From Acidobacteriota bacterium (lineage in GTDB: Bacteria; Acidobacteriota; UBA890; WLXD01): DNA of 64,000 nucleotides. The notes under the pieces were generated by a model. The model searched no databases and was not told the origin of the DNA. It saw only the letters and a list, made by a program, of their open reading frames with translations. Each line of letters opens with the position of its first letter. Within the stretch, counting starts at the first letter, position 1. A program made the translations under genes and the position numbers. Of this stretch, positions 1 to 7,587 are shown piece by piece. The stretch is from NCBI GenBank assembly GCA_963666215.2, contig CAXWPL010000002.1, positions 256,001 to 320,000 on the forward strand, in the 5' to 3' direction.

Positions 1-549
1 AGCGTGACACTGGTGTCGTTCGGCGCCGCAGCGGTGGCCCAGTCGGGGTTTCATCAGGGCATGGAGTTGGCGGCGCGTTTTCGCCCGCCGGTCATCATGA
101 TCTGTTCCGTCGCCGCGCGGGCCGGGCTTCAAGGGAGCCTCGAAGGCCGCGCTGGCGGCTACGGAGTTGCTTCGCGCACCGTCGATGGCGGCGATCCGGT
201 GGCGATGCTCGAAGCCTGCGGCGAGGCGCGCCAAACGGTACGCGACAGTGGCGCCATGTTGCTGATTGCCGAGCTGCCAGACCCCGCCTTGTCTGCGGCG
301 AAGAACAACGGTGGGCTCGCCGCGCGTCGGGCCGTGGAGACGCAGCTTGAAGAGCTGGTCGCTGGCGGTCCACGGGCGCCTCTTCTGTCCGAGCGCCTCG
401 CGGCCATTCTGTCGACCGCGACCGACACCGTGCGAGAAGCGTCGGCTTCGGCGGCCGAGTCGGCGCCGCCAGCCGCCAGCAGAGCTCTCGAAGACATCTA
501 CGGCGAACCGTCATGGATGCAGCAGGAGCAATCCGAATGGCTAGCCTGA
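1..549 (+). CDS. 2-oxoacid dehydrogenase E1 alpha-like subunit, C-terminal part (5' truncated by window), degenerate active site
   Basis: Aligns by eye with PdhA/BkdA C-half (FHQGMELAA..PVI; RAGGYG...VDGGDP; EDIY). Canonical GDG..NN is GAA..CS and the YRxxxHS loop is absent. Directly precedes E1 beta. Confidence 0.8.
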   Translation, partial: SVTLVSFGAAAVAQSGFHQGMELAARFRPPVIMICSVAARAGLQGSLEGRAGGYGVASRTVDGGDPVAMLEACGEARQTVRDSGAMLLIAELPDPALSAAKNNGGLAARRAVETQLEELVAGGPRAPLLSERLAAILSTATDTVREASASAAESAPPAASRALEDIYGEPSWMQQEQSEWLA

Positions 550-1514
550 ACCTGGTGGAGGCGGTCAACTACGCGCTCGGCGCAGAGATGGAGAGTAATC
601 CGCTCGTGGTGCTGCTGGGCGAAGAAGTCAGCGAGTCCGGAGGCTTGCACGGCGCGGCCGAGGGGTTACTCGACCGCTTTGGCGGCGAACGCGTTCTCGA
701 GGTTCCGTTCGCCGAAGGCGGCCTGCTTGGCGCCGCTGCCGGAATGGCGATGTACGGCCTACGGCCGGTGGCCGAGCTGCCGTTCGCCGAATGCCTCTTT
801 CCCGGGCTCGAGCAGCTGTCTGTCGAGATCGCCCGCCTACGCTTCCGTTCGGGAGGCGAGTACACCTGCCCCCTCGTGGTCCGCGTGCCCTACGGCGCAG
901 GCATCGGTGGCGGCCTCGATCAGTTCGAGAGCCCCGAAGCCTACCTTACCCACAGCCCGGGACTGGTTGTTGTGGCCCCGTCGAACGCATACGACGCTGT
1001 TGGCCTGCTGCGCAGCGCGCTACGCGGCGACGATCCGGTGGCCTTCCTCGAGCCCCGTCGGCTCTACAGGCACGAGTCGATGGAGATTCCCGAGACGGAT
1101 TACGAGGTCCCGATCGGCGAAGCCAAGGTGCTTCGTGAGTGTGACGAGGGCGTGTCGTTGATCACCTACGGAGGCATGGTGCCGGTGTCGCTCGATGCTG
1201 CCGAGCTTGCCGCCGAAGCGGGCCACGAAGTCGAGGTGGTCGAGCTGCGAACACTGCTTCCTTTCGATATCGGCACCGTGCTCGCCTCGGTCGTCAAGAC
1301 TGGACGAGCGCTCGTTGTGACCGAGTCGCGCAAGCACGGTGGCTTCGGTGCCGAGCTGGTCGCGACGCTTGCCGAGCGCGCTTTGCTGCACCTGGAGGCG
1401 CCGGTCGAACGCGTCGCCGGCCTCGATGCTCCCATTCCCTATGCACGAGAGGAGCTCTACGTGCCCGACTCGAGCCGTGTCCTAGCGGCGATCGAGCGGC
1501 TCGTTAGCTTCTGA
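537..1514 (+). CDS. 2-oxoacid dehydrogenase E1 beta-like subunit
   Basis: MASLNLVEAVNYAL start; GLRPVAE, RFRSGG..CPLVVRVPYG, FLEP, ELRTLLPFD, SVVKTGR, EAPVERVAG motifs of PdhB/BkdB; overlaps the end of E1a. Confidence 0.9.
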   Translation: MASLNLVEAVNYALGAEMESNPLVVLLGEEVSESGGLHGAAEGLLDRFGGERVLEVPFAEGGLLGAAAGMAMYGLRPVAELPFAECLFPGLEQLSVEIARLRFRSGGEYTCPLVVRVPYGAGIGGGLDQFESPEAYLTHSPGLVVVAPSNAYDAVGLLRSALRGDDPVAFLEPRRLYRHESMEIPETDYEVPIGEAKVLRECDEGVSLITYGGMVPVSLDAAELAAEAGHEVEVVELRTLLPFDIGTVLASVVKTGRALVVTESRKHGGFGAELVATLAERALLHLEAPVERVAGLDAPIPYAREELYVPDSSRVLAAIERLVSF

Positions 1515-1525
1515 GAGCAGTGCCT

Positions 1526-3385
1526 ATGACCACCGAGTTCAAGCTGCCCGAGATCGGCGAGGGAATTGCCGAGGGCGAGATCGTCAAGTGGATGGTCGCG
1601 GAGGGCGACGTTGTTGCCGAGGACGATCCGCTGGTCGAGGTCATGACGGACAAGGCAACGGTTGAGATCCCGTCGCCACGGGCCGGCACGATCGTCAAGC
1701 TCGCGGCCCGGGAAGGTGAGGTTGTCGACGTTGGTACCGTGATCCTCGTGTTCGGCGATGAAGGTGACGAAGTCGGCAGCGAAGCTCAGGACGATTCGCA
1801 GCAGCTGGACGATTCGCCAGAGATGGATGCCGAGGGCTCCGGCGACGACGCTGCAATCGAGACAGCGGCTGAGGAGGTCGACAAGTCGCCGGCCAACGCC
1901 GACAGCTCGTCGAGCGGCTTCGATTGGGGACCCGGCGGCGACGCCAAGAAGAAGGTGAACGAAGAGGCGGCTACATCAATCCGCACGGACGCAACCGACA
2001 GCGTTGAGGACGCCCGCGCCGCCGCGCGAGCCGAGCTCGAAGCTGCAGAGGAGGTGCCGGTGGCTAGGCTGAACGGACACTCAGGAGCGGCTGTCAAGCC
2101 GTGGGAAATCGCCACCTTGTCGACGCCCGGCAATGGCGGATCCGGCCGACTCCTGGCGAGCCCGGCGACGCGTCGTCTGGCGCGAGAGGTTGGCGTGGAT
2201 CTCAGAGAGCTGATCGGCACGGAGCCGGACGGGCGCATTCGGAAAGAGGACGTCGAGGCGTTCGCCGCTACGCGCACCGCCATCATGCAGGGCGGGGCCA
2301 CGGTCTCCGCCACCCTGGCTGAGTCGGGTCCGGTGTCGTCGTCCGCCGCGGCCGATCCTGGCGCCGTAGTCGATGTGTCCGCCGCATCGGAGGCTTCAAC
2401 TCCAGCTTCTGCTCCGCCCGTCGTTCCTCCGCCGATCCCGACAGCCGCTTCGGCGCCCGCTCCAGCTGCCGACGCTGCCACATCAGACACCGAGCCGGAA
2501 GAGGAAGAAGAGCTCTCGTGGCGCCCGGTCGCCGAGCGGCCCGACCCGCCATCGGTCGCGCCCATCGCGAACACGGCCGAGGGAGTGAGAAACGACGAGG
2601 AACGCATCCCGTTCCGTGGACTGCGCCGGCGGATTGCCGAGCGCATGGTGCACTCCAAGACGGTCGTGCCGCACTTCACGTACGTTGAGGAACGCATCCC
2701 GTTCCGTGGACTGCGCCGGCGGATTGCCGAGCGCATGGTGCACTCCAAGACGGTCGTGCCGCACTTCACGTACGTTGAAGAGGCCGACATGTCGGAGGTG
2801 ATCGCGCTGCGACAGCAGGCCAAGCTGCTGGGCGCCGAAGAGGGCGTACGAGTGACGTACCTGCCGTTCATCATCCGCGCGCTCGTCACTGCCCTGCGTC
2901 AACATCCGATCGTCAACTCCACCCTCGACGAGGAGGCCGGCGAGATCGTGGTCAAACGCCACTTCAACGTCGGCATCGCGACCGCTACCGCTCGCGGCCT
3001 GATCGTGCCCGTCGTCAAGCACGCGGAGCGCTTGGGCGTGTTCGAGCTGGCGCGCGAGATCCAGCGCCTCGCCGAAAGTGCGCGAGATGGACGCAGCTCG
3101 ATCGAAGATCTTCAGGAGGGCACGATCACGATCACCAGTACCGGTAACATTGGCGGTGTGCTCGCGACGCCGATCGTCAACCACCCGGAAGTTGCGATCA
3201 TCGGAGTGACGGCGATTCGTAAGCGCGCAGTGGTGGTCGACGATGAGATCGTCGTGCGGCCGATGCTCAACCTTTCGATGTCGCTCGATCACCGCGTCGT
3301 CGACGGGGCTGACGGCGCGCTCTTCATGCGCGACCTGATTCGCTACCTCGAGGACCCGAGGCTCCAGCTGCTCGGTTCTTTGTGA
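1526..3385 (+). CDS. Dihydrolipoamide acyltransferase E2 (one lipoyl domain, peripheral subunit-binding domain, catalytic domain)
   Basis: EFKLPEIGEG..TDKATVE lipoyl motif; ASPATRRLARE..GRIRKEDV binding domain; catalytic DHRVVDG. Contains an exact 90-bp in-frame duplication. Confidence 0.95.
   Translation: MTTEFKLPEIGEGIAEGEIVKWMVAEGDVVAEDDPLVEVMTDKATVEIPSPRAGTIVKLAAREGEVVDVGTVILVFGDEGDEVGSEAQDDSQQLDDSPEMDAEGSGDDAAIETAAEEVDKSPANADSSSSGFDWGPGGDAKKKVNEEAATSIRTDATDSVEDARAAARAELEAAEEVPVARLNGHSGAAVKPWEIATLSTPGNGGSGRLLASPATRRLAREVGVDLRELIGTEPDGRIRKEDVEAFAATRTAIMQGGATVSATLAESGPVSSSAAADPGAVVDVSAASEASTPASAPPVVPPPIPTAASAPAPAADAATSDTEPEEEEELSWRPVAERPDPPSVAPIANTAEGVRNDEERIPFRGLRRRIAERMVHSKTVVPHFTYVEERIPFRGLRRRIAERMVHSKTVVPHFTYVEEADMSEVIALRQQAKLLGAEEGVRVTYLPFIIRALVTALRQHPIVNSTLDEEAGEIVVKRHFNVGIATATARGLIVPVVKHAERLGVFELAREIQRLAESARDGRSSIEDLQEGTITITSTGNIGGVLATPIVNHPEVAIIGVTAIRKRAVVVDDEIVVRPMLNLSMSLDHRVVDGADGALFMRDLIRYLEDPRLQLLGSL
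2597..2778 (+). repeat. Exact 90-bp tandem duplication (2 copies) inside E2
   Basis: 2597-2686 is repeated at 2687-2776 (EERIPFRGLRRRIAERMVHSKTVVPHFTYV x2). Confidence 0.95.
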
Positions 3386-3395
3386 CCTAGCTGCG

Positions 3396-4832
3396 ATGTC
3401 CGAAGACCTCCACGTCGACCTCGCCGTCATCGGCGCTGGGCCTGGCGGCTACGTCGCGGCCCTTCGCGCCGCGCAGCTCGGCCTCAAGACGGTGGTGATC
3501 GAGAAGGAGTTCGTTGGCGGTACCTGTCTGAACATCGGCTGTATCCCGTCGAAGGCACTCCTCGACGCCACCCATCTGCTGACGCAGATCCGCAACGCGT
3601 CGGCGTTCGGAATCCGGGTGGAGGGGATCGAGGTCGACTACCCGGCGATGCGCCAGCACAAGGCGAAAGTCGTCAAGATGTTGACCGGAGGTGTGCGCAG
3701 CCTGCTCCGCAAAGCCGGGGTTACCCTGATTGAGGGTGAGGGAAGCTTCGCTGGCCCGGGCGTGCTGCAGGTCGATCGCGCGGTCTCTGCTGCCACGAGC
3801 TCGGAGTCGAAGGGCGGGGCCGGCGGTCGCGTGGTCGTTCGGGCCGGCAGCATCATCATCGCCTCCGGGTCGGGCGAGGCTCAGCTGCCCGGGGTGCCGC
3901 TCGACGGAGAGCTCGTGATCTCCTCACGCGGCGCTCTCGATCTCGAAGAGGTGCCGCAGCGCATGGTGGTCGTGGGCGGTGGCTACATCGGCCTCGAGAT
4001 GAGCAGCGTGTATTCGCGCCTGGGCACCGACGTCGTCGTGCTCGAGATGCTCGATCGCCTGTTGCCTGAGATGGACCAAGAAGTCGCCGAGACCGCCGAG
4101 AAGCTCATGCGCGAGCAGGGCCTCGACATCCGCTTGAACGCGCGCGTCTCGGGCGTCACTGGCCGCGCGGGCGACGCGGAGGTCGCGTTCGAGACCACGG
4201 AAGAGCGGCAGACGGTTGCTACCGATATTGTCCTTGTGGCGATCGGGCGCCGCCCGCTGACCGCGGGGCTCGGCCTCGATGCAATTGATCTCGAGCCTGA
4301 CCCGCGTGGCTACATCACCGTCGACCACGGTATGCGGACCGGCGTGCCGGGGGTCTACGCGGTCGGCGATGTCGTACCGACGCCGATGCTCGCTCACGTG
4401 GCGATGGATGAGGGTGTTGTAGCGGCCGAGTGCGCAGCCGGTCGCGATGCGGCCATGGAGTATCGCGCGATCCCCGCGGTGGTGTTCACTTCGCCGGAGC
4501 TCGCCTCGGTCGGCCTCAAAGAGGAGGAGGCACTTGCGCGGGGCCGCAAGCTGCGGGTGGGTCGATTCCCGTTCCGTGGCAACGCTAGGGCGCGCGCCCG
4601 CAACGATGTCGAGGGTTGGGTGAAGATCATCGCCGACGCCGAAACCGACGAGCTGTTGGGCGCTCATTGTGTGGGCCCGGAAGCAGGTCATCTCATCCAC
4701 GAGGCCGTCGTAGCGATGGGTTACAGCGGCTATTCCGAAGACCTGGCGCTCACGGTGCACGCCCATCCGACGCTCTCCGAGGCCTTCAAGGAGGCGGCGC
4801 TTGCGGTTGACGGCCGGTCGCTGCATATCTAG
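3396..4832 (+). CDS. lpdA: Dihydrolipoyl dehydrogenase E3
   Basis: GAGPGG FAD motif, GGTCLNIGCIPSK redox disulfide, GGGYIGLE, C-terminal HPTLSE. Confidence 0.97.
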   Translation: MSEDLHVDLAVIGAGPGGYVAALRAAQLGLKTVVIEKEFVGGTCLNIGCIPSKALLDATHLLTQIRNASAFGIRVEGIEVDYPAMRQHKAKVVKMLTGGVRSLLRKAGVTLIEGEGSFAGPGVLQVDRAVSAATSSESKGGAGGRVVVRAGSIIIASGSGEAQLPGVPLDGELVISSRGALDLEEVPQRMVVVGGGYIGLEMSSVYSRLGTDVVVLEMLDRLLPEMDQEVAETAEKLMREQGLDIRLNARVSGVTGRAGDAEVAFETTEERQTVATDIVLVAIGRRPLTAGLGLDAIDLEPDPRGYITVDHGMRTGVPGVYAVGDVVPTPMLAHVAMDEGVVAAECAAGRDAAMEYRAIPAVVFTSPELASVGLKEEEALARGRKLRVGRFPFRGNARARARNDVEGWVKIIADAETDELLGAHCVGPEAGHLIHEAVVAMGYSGYSEDLALTVHAHPTLSEAFKEAALAVDGRSLHI

Positions 4833-4947: not shown

Positions 4948-7587
4948 ATGTCTTCGAGTGAGGGCTCGCTCTTCGGCGAGTCGCTTCGTGGCACGGTGGC
5001 GCGTGTCGTTTACGAGAATGCCGATAATCGCTGGGCGGTGCTGCGACTCGACACCGAGGAGGGCTTACGCGTCTCGGCCGTAGGAACTCTGGCGCCCGTA
5101 TTCGAGGGGGATGCGCTCGAGCTTCGCGGTGAGTGGGAGTGGGACAAACGCTACGGCCGTCAGTTTCGTGCTAGCTCCTCGCGTGCCGCGGAGCCACTCG
5201 GCGAGGTAGGTGTTCGACGCTATCTGTCCTCGGGGCGTATTCCGGGCATCGGAGCCGAGCTGGCGCGCCGACTGGTCGACGCGTTTGGCGGAGACACGCT
5301 ACGGATTCTCGACGAGGAACCGGCCAGGTTGCTGACCGTGCGTGGCATCGGCCCAAAACGCCTGGCCGATATCGAAGAGGCTTGGCAGGAGCACGCCGCC
5401 GATCGGCGGGCGCGAATCGGGCTGCACGACCTCGGGCTGGGAAACGCCCTGACCGAGCGCGTTCTCGACGCCTGGGGCGGTGAGGCGCTGACAAAGGTCC
5501 GTGCGAATCCGTACGGGCTGATTGCCGATGTGCGCGGGGTGGGCTTTCGCATTGCCGATTCCCTGGCACTCGGGCTCGGTTGGCACACCACCTCGGCTCC
5601 GCGTCTGCGCGCCGGACTGCGGCACGTGTTGCAGGAAGCCACCAACGAGGGGCACTGCTACCTGCCTCTGAGCCAGCTGTCGGATCGTGCCTCGCGGTTG
5701 CTCGGGCTGACAGGTATCGAGGTGCCGCCGTTCGACACGGATGATCCTGCCGGGGGACCGGCTTCGGCGAGCGGGCTGCTCGGCCAGAGCATCGATCGTA
5801 TGGCGGGAACGGGGGAGATCGTGGTCGAGCGTGCTCGATCGCGCGGTTCCCGTGCTGGCTCTCGCGGTGCAGGCGGTGCCGAGCTCGACTTCGGCGCAGA
5901 TGAAGGCTCGGTGACCGATCTACGGGATTCTCGCGCACAGGGTGGCGAGTCGGTACAGAACGAGGCCGAGCTGTCTGAGGAGTTTTCCGCAGCGGCGGAA
6001 GAGCCGCCCGCCTGGTTTGATGACATTCCCGCCTCAGAAGAGGACCAGAGACGCGTCTTCCTGTCGCATTTGTACGGTGCCGAACAACGCATCGCGCGCC
6101 GGTTGGCGCTGCTCGCGAGCGCTGCAGCGCAAAGCAGCACGGCGGAAGCCTCGCTCGACGGGATCCTGCGCCACGTCGAGTCGAAGTTGCGGGCACGCGG
6201 GCAGATCGAGCTCGGCTCGCAGCAGCGCCGGGCGGTGGAGCGCACGTTGAACGAACGACTACTTGTGGTCACGGGTGGTCCGGGAACCGGGAAGACGACC
6301 ATCGTCAACACGATCGTGCAAGCGTTTCAGCTACTCGAGCAACGGCCGACGTTGGCGGCTCCCACCGGTCGCGCCGCAAAACGGCTTGAAGAGGCGACCG
6401 GTCAGCCAGCCAAGACCTTGCATCGTCTTCTCGAGTTCCAGTTCGACACGGGCTTTGGCCGCGGTCCGGAGCGGCCGCTCGAGGCAGACCTCGTGATTGT
6501 CGACGAGGCCTCGATGATCGACCTGACGCTGATGGACGCGCTTGTGGGTGCGCTACCTCTCGGCTGCGGACTCCTGTTGGTGGGTGACTCCGATCAACTG
6601 CCGTCGGTGGGCCCGGGAGCGGTGCTCCGCGACCTTATCGGGTCGGGAGCGGTGCCGACGGTTCGTCTTACCGAGATCTACCGGCAGGCGAAGCGCAGCT
6701 TGATCGTCCGCAACGCGCATCGGATCAACACCGGTCAGATGCCGGTGCGCGAAGTGACGGCGCTCGACGAGGAGTTGTCGGGCGCAGACGACCTCATCGA
6801 GGTCGGTCTTGACACGGGCGTGGGGCTCACGACGCCGGGAGGCCCTCCGACACCCGACTTCTATTACATCGAAGAGCGAGATTCGGACCGTTCTCGCGAG
6901 CTCGCGGTGAGGCTGGTGAGGGAGCGCATGCCGAAGCGCTTCGGCCTCGACCCTGTTCGCGATATCCAGGTCATGGCCCCGATGCATCGTGGTCGGTGCG
7001 GCGTTGAGCGGCTCAATGTCGAGCTCCAGGCAGCGCTCAATGTGCGGTCGGGTGCGCTGATCGAGAGTCCTACCCTCAGCGGGATCAGCGGGATCAGCGC
7101 GGTCGCCGGGAGCACCGGGACGAGCGGCGACAGCGTGGCCGCGCCACGCCGGGCCACGCTCTGCATTGGCGACCGCGTCATGCAGCTGCGCAATGACTAT
7201 GATCGCGAGGTCTTCAACGGCGACATCGGCTGGGTGGTTGCGGTCGACGACGAGCTCGGCGTCAGTGTCGACTTCGCTGGTCGTATCGTGGGCTACGATC
7301 GCAAGGAGCTCGGCGACCTCACGCTGGCCTACGCCATCACCATCCACAAGAGCCAGGGCAGCGAGTACGACGCAGTGGTCGCGTTGCTGCTTCCGGAGCA
7401 CCACATCATGCTGCAGCGGAATCTGCTCTACACCGCGCTCACGCGAGGCAGAAACCTGGTGGTGCTCATCAGTACCGATGGGGCGCTGCGTCGCGCGATC
7501 GGCAACAATGCACCGTCGGCGCGGTACTCGGCGCTTGCCGAGCGCCTGAGCGCGGCGTTCGGCGGCGTGTTCGAGGGCGCTTCGTAG
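4948..7587 (+). CDS. recD2: ATP-dependent RecD2-like DNA helicase
   Basis: N-terminal YGRQF and HhH motifs (GIG), NPY, Walker A GGPGTGKT, APTGRAAK, DEASM, GDSDQLPSVGPG, YAITIHKSQGSE, RNLLYTALTR. Confidence 0.95.
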   Translation: MSSSEGSLFGESLRGTVARVVYENADNRWAVLRLDTEEGLRVSAVGTLAPVFEGDALELRGEWEWDKRYGRQFRASSSRAAEPLGEVGVRRYLSSGRIPGIGAELARRLVDAFGGDTLRILDEEPARLLTVRGIGPKRLADIEEAWQEHAADRRARIGLHDLGLGNALTERVLDAWGGEALTKVRANPYGLIADVRGVGFRIADSLALGLGWHTTSAPRLRAGLRHVLQEATNEGHCYLPLSQLSDRASRLLGLTGIEVPPFDTDDPAGGPASASGLLGQSIDRMAGTGEIVVERARSRGSRAGSRGAGGAELDFGADEGSVTDLRDSRAQGGESVQNEAELSEEFSAAAEEPPAWFDDIPASEEDQRRVFLSHLYGAEQRIARRLALLASAAAQSSTAEASLDGILRHVESKLRARGQIELGSQQRRAVERTLNERLLVVTGGPGTGKTTIVNTIVQAFQLLEQRPTLAAPTGRAAKRLEEATGQPAKTLHRLLEFQFDTGFGRGPERPLEADLVIVDEASMIDLTLMDALVGALPLGCGLLLVGDSDQLPSVGPGAVLRDLIGSGAVPTVRLTEIYRQAKRSLIVRNAHRINTGQMPVREVTALDEELSGADDLIEVGLDTGVGLTTPGGPPTPDFYYIEERDSDRSRELAVRLVRERMPKRFGLDPVRDIQVMAPMHRGRCGVERLNVELQAALNVRSGALIESPTLSGISGISAVAGSTGTSGDSVAAPRRATLCIGDRVMQLRNDYDREVFNGDIGWVVAVDDELGVSVDFAGRIVGYDRKELGDLTLAYAITIHKSQGSEYDAVVALLLPEHHIMLQRNLLYTALTRGRNLVVLISTDGALRRAIGNNAPSARYSALAERLSAAFGGVFEGAS

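Follow-up and report, generated by a model that had tools for sequence, protein, structure and literature searches.

Non-catalytic subunits of 2-oxoacid dehydrogenase complexes are known for the E2 core, where E3-binding protein (E3BP, or protein X; named in PMC466950) of eukaryotic pyruvate dehydrogenase (PDH) complexes is a non-catalytic paralogue of E2. Here we describe a probable counterpart on the E1 side, encoded in a 64,000-nt stretch (the window, G000:C2:256001-320000) of a metagenome-assembled genome (MAG) of an Acidobacteriota bacterium, a 4.65-Mb, five-contig assembly that is 91.7% complete. The operon, lipA-E1a'-E1b'-E2-E3, extends across the 5' edge of the window, which falls within the E1-alpha gene; we call its E1 subunits E1a' (pseudo-E1 alpha) and E1b' (pseudo-E1 beta). 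A sequence-only reading of the window had proposed that both are catalytically dead in an otherwise intact operon. Our analysis leads us to a retained pseudo-E1, to which we assign a probability of about 0.6: E1a' and E1b' are probably a non-catalytic part of the complex, docked on E2, with a fused E1 encoded elsewhere doing the chemistry. Like E3BP, such a pseudo-E1 would be a derivative of a catalytic component kept for a structural or binding role, but the origin of E3BP is in E2 and its place is the core, whereas here it is a bacterial E1 that has lost catalysis; a full-text literature search returned no description of a non-catalytic E1.

E1a' and E1b' are clear homologues of the subunits of heterotetrameric (alpha2beta2) E1 enzymes, both PdhA/PdhB (1W85, 3DUF) and branched-chain 2-oxoacid dehydrogenase (BCKDH; 1UM9, 2BP7, 1DTW). 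In the E1 of Geobacillus stearothermophilus PDH, alpha-subunit residues D173 and N202 and the inner loop 203-212 hold magnesium-thiamine diphosphate (Mg-ThDP), beta-subunit E59 activates the cofactor, and H271 of the alpha outer loop and H128 of the beta subunit act in acyl transfer to lipoate (PMC2663715). The Acidobacteriota locus has the gene order of the Bacillus and Geobacillus PDH operons (pdhA-pdhB-E2-E3), its E1b' C-terminal domain aligns throughout with theirs, terminal Phe included, and E2's peripheral subunit-binding domain (PSBD) is likewise predicted to dock on the beta dimer; it differs in lacking G[DE]G...NN, the inner loop and the His outer loop, and in having Gln for the beta His. 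A precedent for E1s that share an E2 comes from the hybrid PDH/2-oxoglutarate dehydrogenase (ODH) complex of Corynebacterium glutamicum, in which two different E1s use one E2 (PMC7568260) and are encoded away from its gene, as we propose here for the fused E1; as described, however, that complex has two active E1s and lacks a dead one. The fused protein (E1ab) would perform the same two-domain chemistry on one chain, its catalytic motifs being intact in the copies of the window's genome, and is the presumed replacement rather than the pseudo-E1 itself; our literature search found no biochemical study of it.

The window holds the C-terminal 182 residues of E1a' (positions 1-549, + strand; matches to E1_dh and TIGR03181; Atlas model with a predicted local distance difference test score, pLDDT, of 0.81), and retrieval of the complete gene, a check that the sequence-only reading had suggested, gave a 363-aa protein (L003:9458-10549 = G000:C2:255458-256549) whose first 543 nt precede the window. 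By profile this protein is homologous to the E1-alpha family (Pfam PF00676, E1_dh, 98.4 bits, cut-off 22), yet it falls below the curated equivalog cut-offs (TIGR03181, 121.9 bits against 411.35; TIGR03182, 77.2 against 393.85). Aligned to the solved E1-alpha chains 2bp7_A (Pseudomonas putida; E 3e-25) and 1v11_A (human BCKDH), E1a' has GAA in the G[DE]G column, and NNxxAIS is replaced by a gap plus CS; the gap, of 8 residues against 2bp7_A and 5 against 1v11_A, is placed at the beginning of the inner active-site loop, and both the Mg ligands and that loop are gone. The remnant of the Mg-ThDP motif (FG[DE]G...NNxxAIS in active enzymes) thus reads FGAAA...ICS (19-108, + strand, with FGAAA at 19-33 and ICS at 100-108), and the alignment confirms what had been read from the letters, the missing NNxxAIS included. 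The alignment to the solved chains stops ahead of the YR..HS loop, and this part of E1a' is unrecognisable because the E1_dh profile matched only at positions 8-213 of 300; ELPDPALSA (271-297, + strand) occupies the expected site of the YR..HS..D outer loop, in agreement with the earlier claim that it replaces the active-site His loop. Around this loop some 25 residues are absent from most E1a' orthologues, and the protein of this genome additionally lacks C-terminal motifs that its orthologues retain. The predicted fold persists: the Atlas model has a predicted template-modelling score (pTM) of 0.80 and, compared with models of E1-alpha across 305-315 residues, gives TM-scores of 0.77-0.79. 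The YR Arg and the segment GRQLPG are invariant over 19 E1a'.

E1b' (513-1514, + strand; 333 aa counted from ATG 513) matches 1um9_B, the E1-beta of Thermus thermophilus, at E 4e-98 and contains both expected domains (PF02779 Transket_pyr, 109.1 bits; PF02780 Transketolase_C, 110.7 bits), with 246.6 bits in NF006667, under the cut-off of 321. In GGGLDQFES (906-932), Gln137 (codon CAG, 921-923, + strand) aligns with the His of HSQS in the T. thermophilus and P. putida E1-beta chains, and the substitution that had been noted at 921 is thereby borne out. This position is Q in all ten aligned E1b' of the window's family (f1; from 11 genomes) and H in 60 of 60 canonical beta subunits, and the f1 proteins deviate at 29 of the 130 columns in which those 60 have an invariance of 95% or more; many of the 29 surround the cofactor pocket, and several (45-47, 64-66, 87-89, 135-137) flank the activating Glu or adjoin the catalytic His. 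Two further differences that had been listed as losses, LPFAE (777-791) and GEEV (618-629), are present as described but are conservative D-to-E changes or changes particular to this lineage. The ThDP-activating Glu is kept in all E1b' members, PFAEGG aligning with PLSE/PLAE. E1b' also keeps an aromatic residue of the pyrimidine pocket. E1b' carries exactly the His-to-Gln change studied in the G. stearothermophilus H128Q mutant, which retained activity in the 2,6-dichlorophenolindophenol (DCPIP) assay and had less than 5% of complex activity (PMC2663715). The claim that both subunits are dead is therefore supported within f1; it does not extend to the sister family of the same order (f2), whose E1b' retains the His, or to other dead-alpha lineages, which keep it as well.

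These letters are unlikely to be artefacts. Contigs from sequencing runs X3 and X4, of two studies, cover L003:9400-12626 with no differences, although one of the matching runs may be the source sample; a contig from a further strain in run X10 (depth 4) has 13 differences over 4 kb and none within the motifs; and GAAA...ICS recurs in a protein of 99% identity encoded on a different contig (P0001). The identical contigs from two studies and this close relative rule out an assembly error, and the independent assemblies carry the letters of the window where canonical motifs would have spoken against loss. Both frames are open under translation table 11, which makes an alternative genetic code or a frameshift needless, and they overlap as originally described, the E1a' stop lying at 547-549 and E1b' starting at ATG 513 or, more likely, at ATG 537, the point from which it can be aligned with solved E1-beta chains. 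A 233-nt contig from a seawater metatranscriptome run lies inside E1a' with no differences, a weak hint of transcription given that DNA may be in the library; RNA run X19 covers 5 of 30 bins, and the uncovered bins carry no meaning.

The same losses recur among relatives. A protein search found strong E1a' orthologues in 19 of 40 related genomes, in two families of one order; a word-index protein search, whose index misses the divergent family, returned only one non-self close relative, and the named relatives from the contig search, whose output was dominated by Streptomyces BCKDH, are all labelled 'MAG: Acidobacteriota bacterium'. The operon is kept in these 19 related loci: in every one lipA adjoins E1a' and an E1b' comes next, while 18 have E2 and 17 have E3, and wherever a gene is missing the contig ends. 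When 20 E1a' were aligned, that of the window's genome included, 13 lacked the acid, the NN pair and the His loop, and six kept only a Glu (GEE, GEA or GEV); NN and the His loop are gone in 19 of the 20, and G014 has the sole fully canonical split E1a among these 20 genomes of the order. The residues that stand in at the motif vary by genus (GAA, GPS, GRG, GVA, GAG and others), which fits positions freed from constraint, and the E1a' frame is nevertheless open in all 20 genomes. Both predictions that had accompanied the idea of a retained pseudoenzyme rather than random decay, namely orthologues with the same losses and gene order and a ratio of non-synonymous to synonymous substitution rates (dN/dS) below that of decay, agree with what we observe in the 19 relatives and in 11 close pairs, and together with the independent assemblies they support it. 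By the Nei-Gojobori method (NG86), dN/dS in these pairs was 0.078-0.230 for E1a' and 0.047-0.198 for E1b', comparable to LipA (0.076-0.192), E2 (0.120-0.253), E3 (0.058-0.180) and the downstream RecD2-like gene, whose range is alike. The pairs all come from sister genera, other than the window's own genus, and dS exceeds 1 in several; the two least saturated gave E1a' values of 0.129 and 0.230.

A degenerate E1 alpha is not confined to this order. Among 301 Acidobacteriota genomes (two of them flagged as unpublished, on which nothing rests), a profile of the dead form scored 395-509 bits inside the order and at most 339 outside it, where the 15 best matches are all canonical and are accompanied by a His-bearing beta. 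G027, of a different family and order, has an independently degenerate alpha (ACGHAAV..., without NN or His loop; L133:7950-8987) beside a His-bearing beta. When the profile was searched against 1.84 billion representatives, quick alignment of the best 149 matches, some of them fragments, classed 65 as canonical, 47 as lacking the acid, NN and His, and 37 as lacking one or two of these, and on a quick tree the degenerate alphas were for the most part separated from canonical alphas. Another clade of degenerate alphas (A4, FFDA.. for FGDG) accounts for the dead alpha in 8 of 80 metagenome loci (L164, L166, L180, L182, L184, L210, L220 and L243), with a His-bearing beta in 8 of 8, lipA upstream in five and E2 downstream in five; six aligned betas from these loci keep 27 of the 29 columns that changed in f1. 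The other 71 alpha-bearing loci are mostly canonical lipA-alpha-beta-E2(-E3), and one locus had no alpha. We therefore regard the dead alpha as recurrent and the doubly degenerate pair as special to the window's family. Myxococcota clusters lie nearest to the wider dead family in the Atlas, which we take as a lead only.

The remainder of the operon encodes proteins with their catalytic motifs in place, as the sequence-only reading had held, and Pfam and NCBIfam assignments are concordant across its genes. E2 (1520-3385, + strand; lipoyl, PSBD and catalytic domains) has TDKA of the lipoyl domain at 1646-1657, the PSBD at 2156-2203 and DHRVVDG at 3287-3307, matches PF00364, PF02817 and PF00198 with the lipoyl Lys, PSBD and DHRxxDG present, and is 64-86% identical across genera; we leave its substrate unassigned because no NCBIfam equivalog cut-off was reached. 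E3 (3396-4832, + strand), with CLNIGC at 3525-3542 and HAHPTLSE at 4758-4781, passes TIGR01350 (537.2 bits, cut-off 408.8), and LipA passes its own equivalog cut-off (389.8 bits against 310).

A working E2/E3 core would need a source of acyl groups, and the search for a canonical E1 elsewhere in the genome was positive. Four E1_dh matches occur in the window's genome: E1a', the E1a of a canonical E1a/E1b/E2 set (C4:149151-152440), in which the alpha adjoins its own beta, and two fused E1ab proteins, one of 758 aa (C4:834263-836539) with GDG...NN, RFNGHS and YHSMS, and one of 821 aa (C5:729018-731483) with a GDA...DN variant and both His kept. The fused copies match the NCBIfam PDH E1 alpha and beta models at sub-threshold scores only. 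No AceE-type E1 was found in this genome with PF17831, and no SucA-type E1 among its four PF00676 and five PF02779 matches, one of the latter being, on length alone, what we take to be DXS. Proteins of the 758-aa type occur at 62-72% identity in 23 of the 25 genomes that the order has besides this one, complete in 20 and truncated by a contig end in three; the two in which the search found none are G014 (90% complete, 620 contigs), whose only E1_dh matches are its two operon alphas, and G022 (83% complete). G011 (96% complete) and G012 (95%) have a single E2 each, that of the operon, no AceE-type E1 in our search, and beyond the dead alpha two fused proteins each as their E1_dh matches, with no separate canonical alpha; with no other E2 or E1, the core in these two near-complete relatives could hardly be fed otherwise than by a fused E1. 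Genera of the family differ in their 'real' PDH solution, in that genus g3 has not only the pseudo-E1 operon but also an aceE-aceF pair, with the gene for an AceE-type E1 immediately upstream of that for a second E2 (G002:C8:12274-14814; G006:C2:5529521-5532033).

A modelled complex is consistent with E1b' still taking the docking domain of E2, which we consider most likely. The E1b' C-terminal domain (1083-1511, + strand, last residue Phe) aligns end to end with that of the G. stearothermophilus beta subunit, and the PSBD of the operon E2 keeps its Arg-rich helix ATRRLAR. In a model of two E1b' C-domains with the PSBD, the score was 0.70 against 0.00 for the best control, a mark that 116 of 157 solved complexes attained, compared with 2 of 215 pairs that were mismatched; three runs agreed in at least 100% of contacts, the partner pLDDT was at least 71, and the PSBD spans both E1b' copies on the predicted surface LLHLEA (residues 291-296 of each copy). 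Modelling of the complex, which the sequence-only reading had called for, thus places the PSBD on the E1b' dimer and supports binding without showing it, as the pass may reflect likeness rather than binding, E1-PSBD complexes having already been solved.

Taken together, these observations suggest that E1a' and E1b' have their ancestor in a split alpha/beta E1, that of a Bacillus-type PDH operon, and that the E1a'b' assembly would be unable to hold Mg-ThDP, decarboxylate or reductively acylate. As judged from sequence, the two proteins have the properties of pseudoenzymes, combining descent from a catalytic family and loss of its residues with purifying selection in sister genera. The E2/E3 core would remain a working acyltransferase and dehydrogenase, most likely receiving its acyl groups from the orphan fused E1ab encoded elsewhere, and the pseudo-E1 might occupy or organise PSBD sites, regulate the access of E1 and E3, or hold the lipoyl domain. 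Several observations weigh against this account. The E1a' of the window's genome is only 33-40% identical to those of five other f1 genomes, which are 42-59% identical among themselves, and the E1b' of G020 is broken into two frames (L032:5286-6260). The strict conservation of Gln137 suggests that some ligand or contact has persisted and that the position is not drifting freely, and since the activating Glu in all E1b' and the YR Arg of E1a' are strictly kept as well, part of the pocket still matters. A His-bearing beta beside a dead alpha, in f2 and in all eight A4 loci, would be unexpected had the pair long been non-catalytic, and the beta in those other lineages could pair with another alpha. 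The operon E2 is not the only E2 of the window's genome, two E2 genes having been found there with the canonical set. Finally, the contrast between an absent fused E1 and an intact split E1 comes from one genome, G014, among non-independent relatives, and G022 has a dead alpha yet no fused E1 of the 758-aa type.

Several of these points would be accounted for if E1a' and E1b' were simply decaying, as functionless and not yet disrupted remnants, at least in the window's own genus, where a canonical set lies elsewhere in the genome. The acceleration of E1a' and E1b' in this lineage, which LipA, E2 and E3 do not share, fits such decay, as do the loss of C-terminal motifs kept by orthologues, the split E1b' of the one relative, and differences within the species that are as often non-synonymous as synonymous (two of each in E1a'; eight non-synonymous against five synonymous over the operon, from the depth-4 contig, too few to gauge constraint). 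We nevertheless consider decay improbable, because all 20 genomes, at 33-59% identity, have an uninterrupted E1a' frame, the 11 pairs from other genera give dN/dS values of 0.08-0.23, and both frames are intact, with their translational overlap, in this genome, its 99% relative and the X10 strain. Somewhat better, though still unlikely, is the idea that E1a'b' has become a sensor or regulator, its emptied site binding a small molecule (a 2-oxoacid, a thiamine derivative or an acyl-CoA) or the lipoyl domain and so tuning E2/E3 or lipoylation by LipA. The invariance of Gln137 in f1, that of the YR Arg and GRQLPG, and the constant neighbourhood of lipA could all be read in this way, but in the E1a' alignments the dead forms show no newly conserved motif of their own, and lipA is also the neighbour of a fully canonical E1a, both in other Acidobacteriota and at about 50 metagenome loci. 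The lipA linkage is therefore older than the loss of catalysis, and we set it aside as a clue to a new function.

Retained activity seems to us slightly less probable than decay: E1a'b' could bind ThDP or another cofactor in a non-canonical manner, or E1b' could be partnered by another alpha that is active, either a second one in the operon, where there is one, or one encoded elsewhere, so that the complex would stay catalytic. Decarboxylation persists in the H128Q mutant of a genuine E1 (PMC2663715), E1b' keeps the activating Glu and the pyrimidine-pocket aromatic, its acidic changes are only D to E, the beta His survives in f2 and the other dead-alpha clades, and a second canonical alpha lies between E2 and E3 in G014 and G021. 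Yet f1 lacks the Mg ligands, the inner loop, the His outer loop and the beta His at once, with replacements that vary by genus; neither the operon of the window's genome nor that of any f1 member contains a second alpha; and the canonical alpha of the window's genome sits beside its own beta, G011 and G012 having no separate canonical alpha. The least probable account takes up the repurposing of E2 and E3 that the sequence-only reading had offered: the core would supply reductant through its lipoyl groups in place of 2-oxoacid oxidation, and the pseudo-E1 would be an adaptor. Mycobacteria provide a general precedent, their Lpd and DlaT feeding AhpD and AhpC, and we know of nothing else in its favour here: the acyltransferase site DHRVVDG is kept in an E2 that is 64-86% identical across genera, intact orphan E1s need an E2, and among the immediate neighbours, the only ones viewed, there is no peroxiredoxin-type gene or other evidence for such a system.

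The retained pseudo-E1 has a plausible history in the operons of related genomes. A second canonical E1-alpha stands between E2 and E3 in loci with one beta (L035:7405-8496, L040:6351-7478, L131:7355-8512); the arrangement lipA-alpha1-beta-E2-alpha2-E3 has both alphas canonical in G014 and G030; at least six further genomes (G134, G063, G166, G078, G123 and G048) have two alpha matches separated by about 3.4 kb; and genus g10 combines a half-degenerate alpha1 with an intact alpha2. An operon with two canonical alphas may accordingly have been the starting point, from which alpha2 was lost and alpha1 died in most of the order; the beta His would then have been lost in f1, and in the window's own genus both E1 genes would have diverged further, with no comparable drop in the identity of E3. 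In metagenomes the profile of the dead form finds dozens of different degenerate clusters, and these, the second clade (in lipA-alpha'-beta-E2 operons) and the independent case in another acidobacterial order bear on a broader and more tentative possibility, that pseudo-E1s form a widespread, unrecognised class of non-catalytic subunits, each time derived anew from an alpha gene linked to lipA in a PDH-type operon, and were kept because a cofactor-free, E1-shaped heterotetramer is useful on the docking domain of E2. Were this so, the pseudo-E1 might set the number of sites open to fused E1s and E3, or else its task might be to keep the lipoyl domain in place for LipA or to shield that domain.

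Several other features of the locus and its genomes deserve mention. Upstream of the window lie lipA (L003:8479-9447) and an ABC transporter, and downstream of the operon are a RecD2-like helicase (4948-7587, 879 aa, on the strand of E3 and 115 nt below it) and a metallo-beta-lactamase (MBL)-fold hydrolase; the helicase recurs in 13 of the 19 related loci, five of the other six being too short to show a full gene, and in L044 about 1.3 kb below E3 gave no match to it. E2 more likely starts at ATG 1526, since the X10 strain has GTA for the GTG at 1520-1522. At the start of its catalytic domain E2 contains an exact, in-frame 90-bp tandem duplication (2597-2778, + strand; 2.0 copies of 30 aa, EERIPF...FTYV twice); the X10 contig skips exactly 90 bases there, which indicates a polymorphism between close strains, and the short-read contigs of X3 and X4 break at the same place. 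Elsewhere, the E3 of G003 lies in two open reading frames (L043:12112-13507) and the fused E1ab of G016 (G016:C14:22769-24958) has two TAA stops; each of these, like the split E1b' of G020, is either a real disruption or a MAG error. The window's genome also has three POR_N matches, two of which (G000:C1:4172-4915 and G000:C3:410068-410811) have identical scores and identical open-frame lengths on different contigs and may represent a repeated region or assembly redundancy.

That an emptied E1 is conserved through two families of Acidobacteriota argues that the E1 shape itself has a job on the E2 scaffold. As such genes are routinely called 'pyruvate dehydrogenase E1 alpha/beta', metabolic reconstructions would credit abundant uncultured bacteria with an enzyme that they probably lack, and would also miss the fused E1 that is probably the working enzyme. 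Running from the canonical operon of G014, through half-degenerate genera, to the window's family, the series would constitute a natural, stepwise record of an enzyme becoming a pseudoenzyme.

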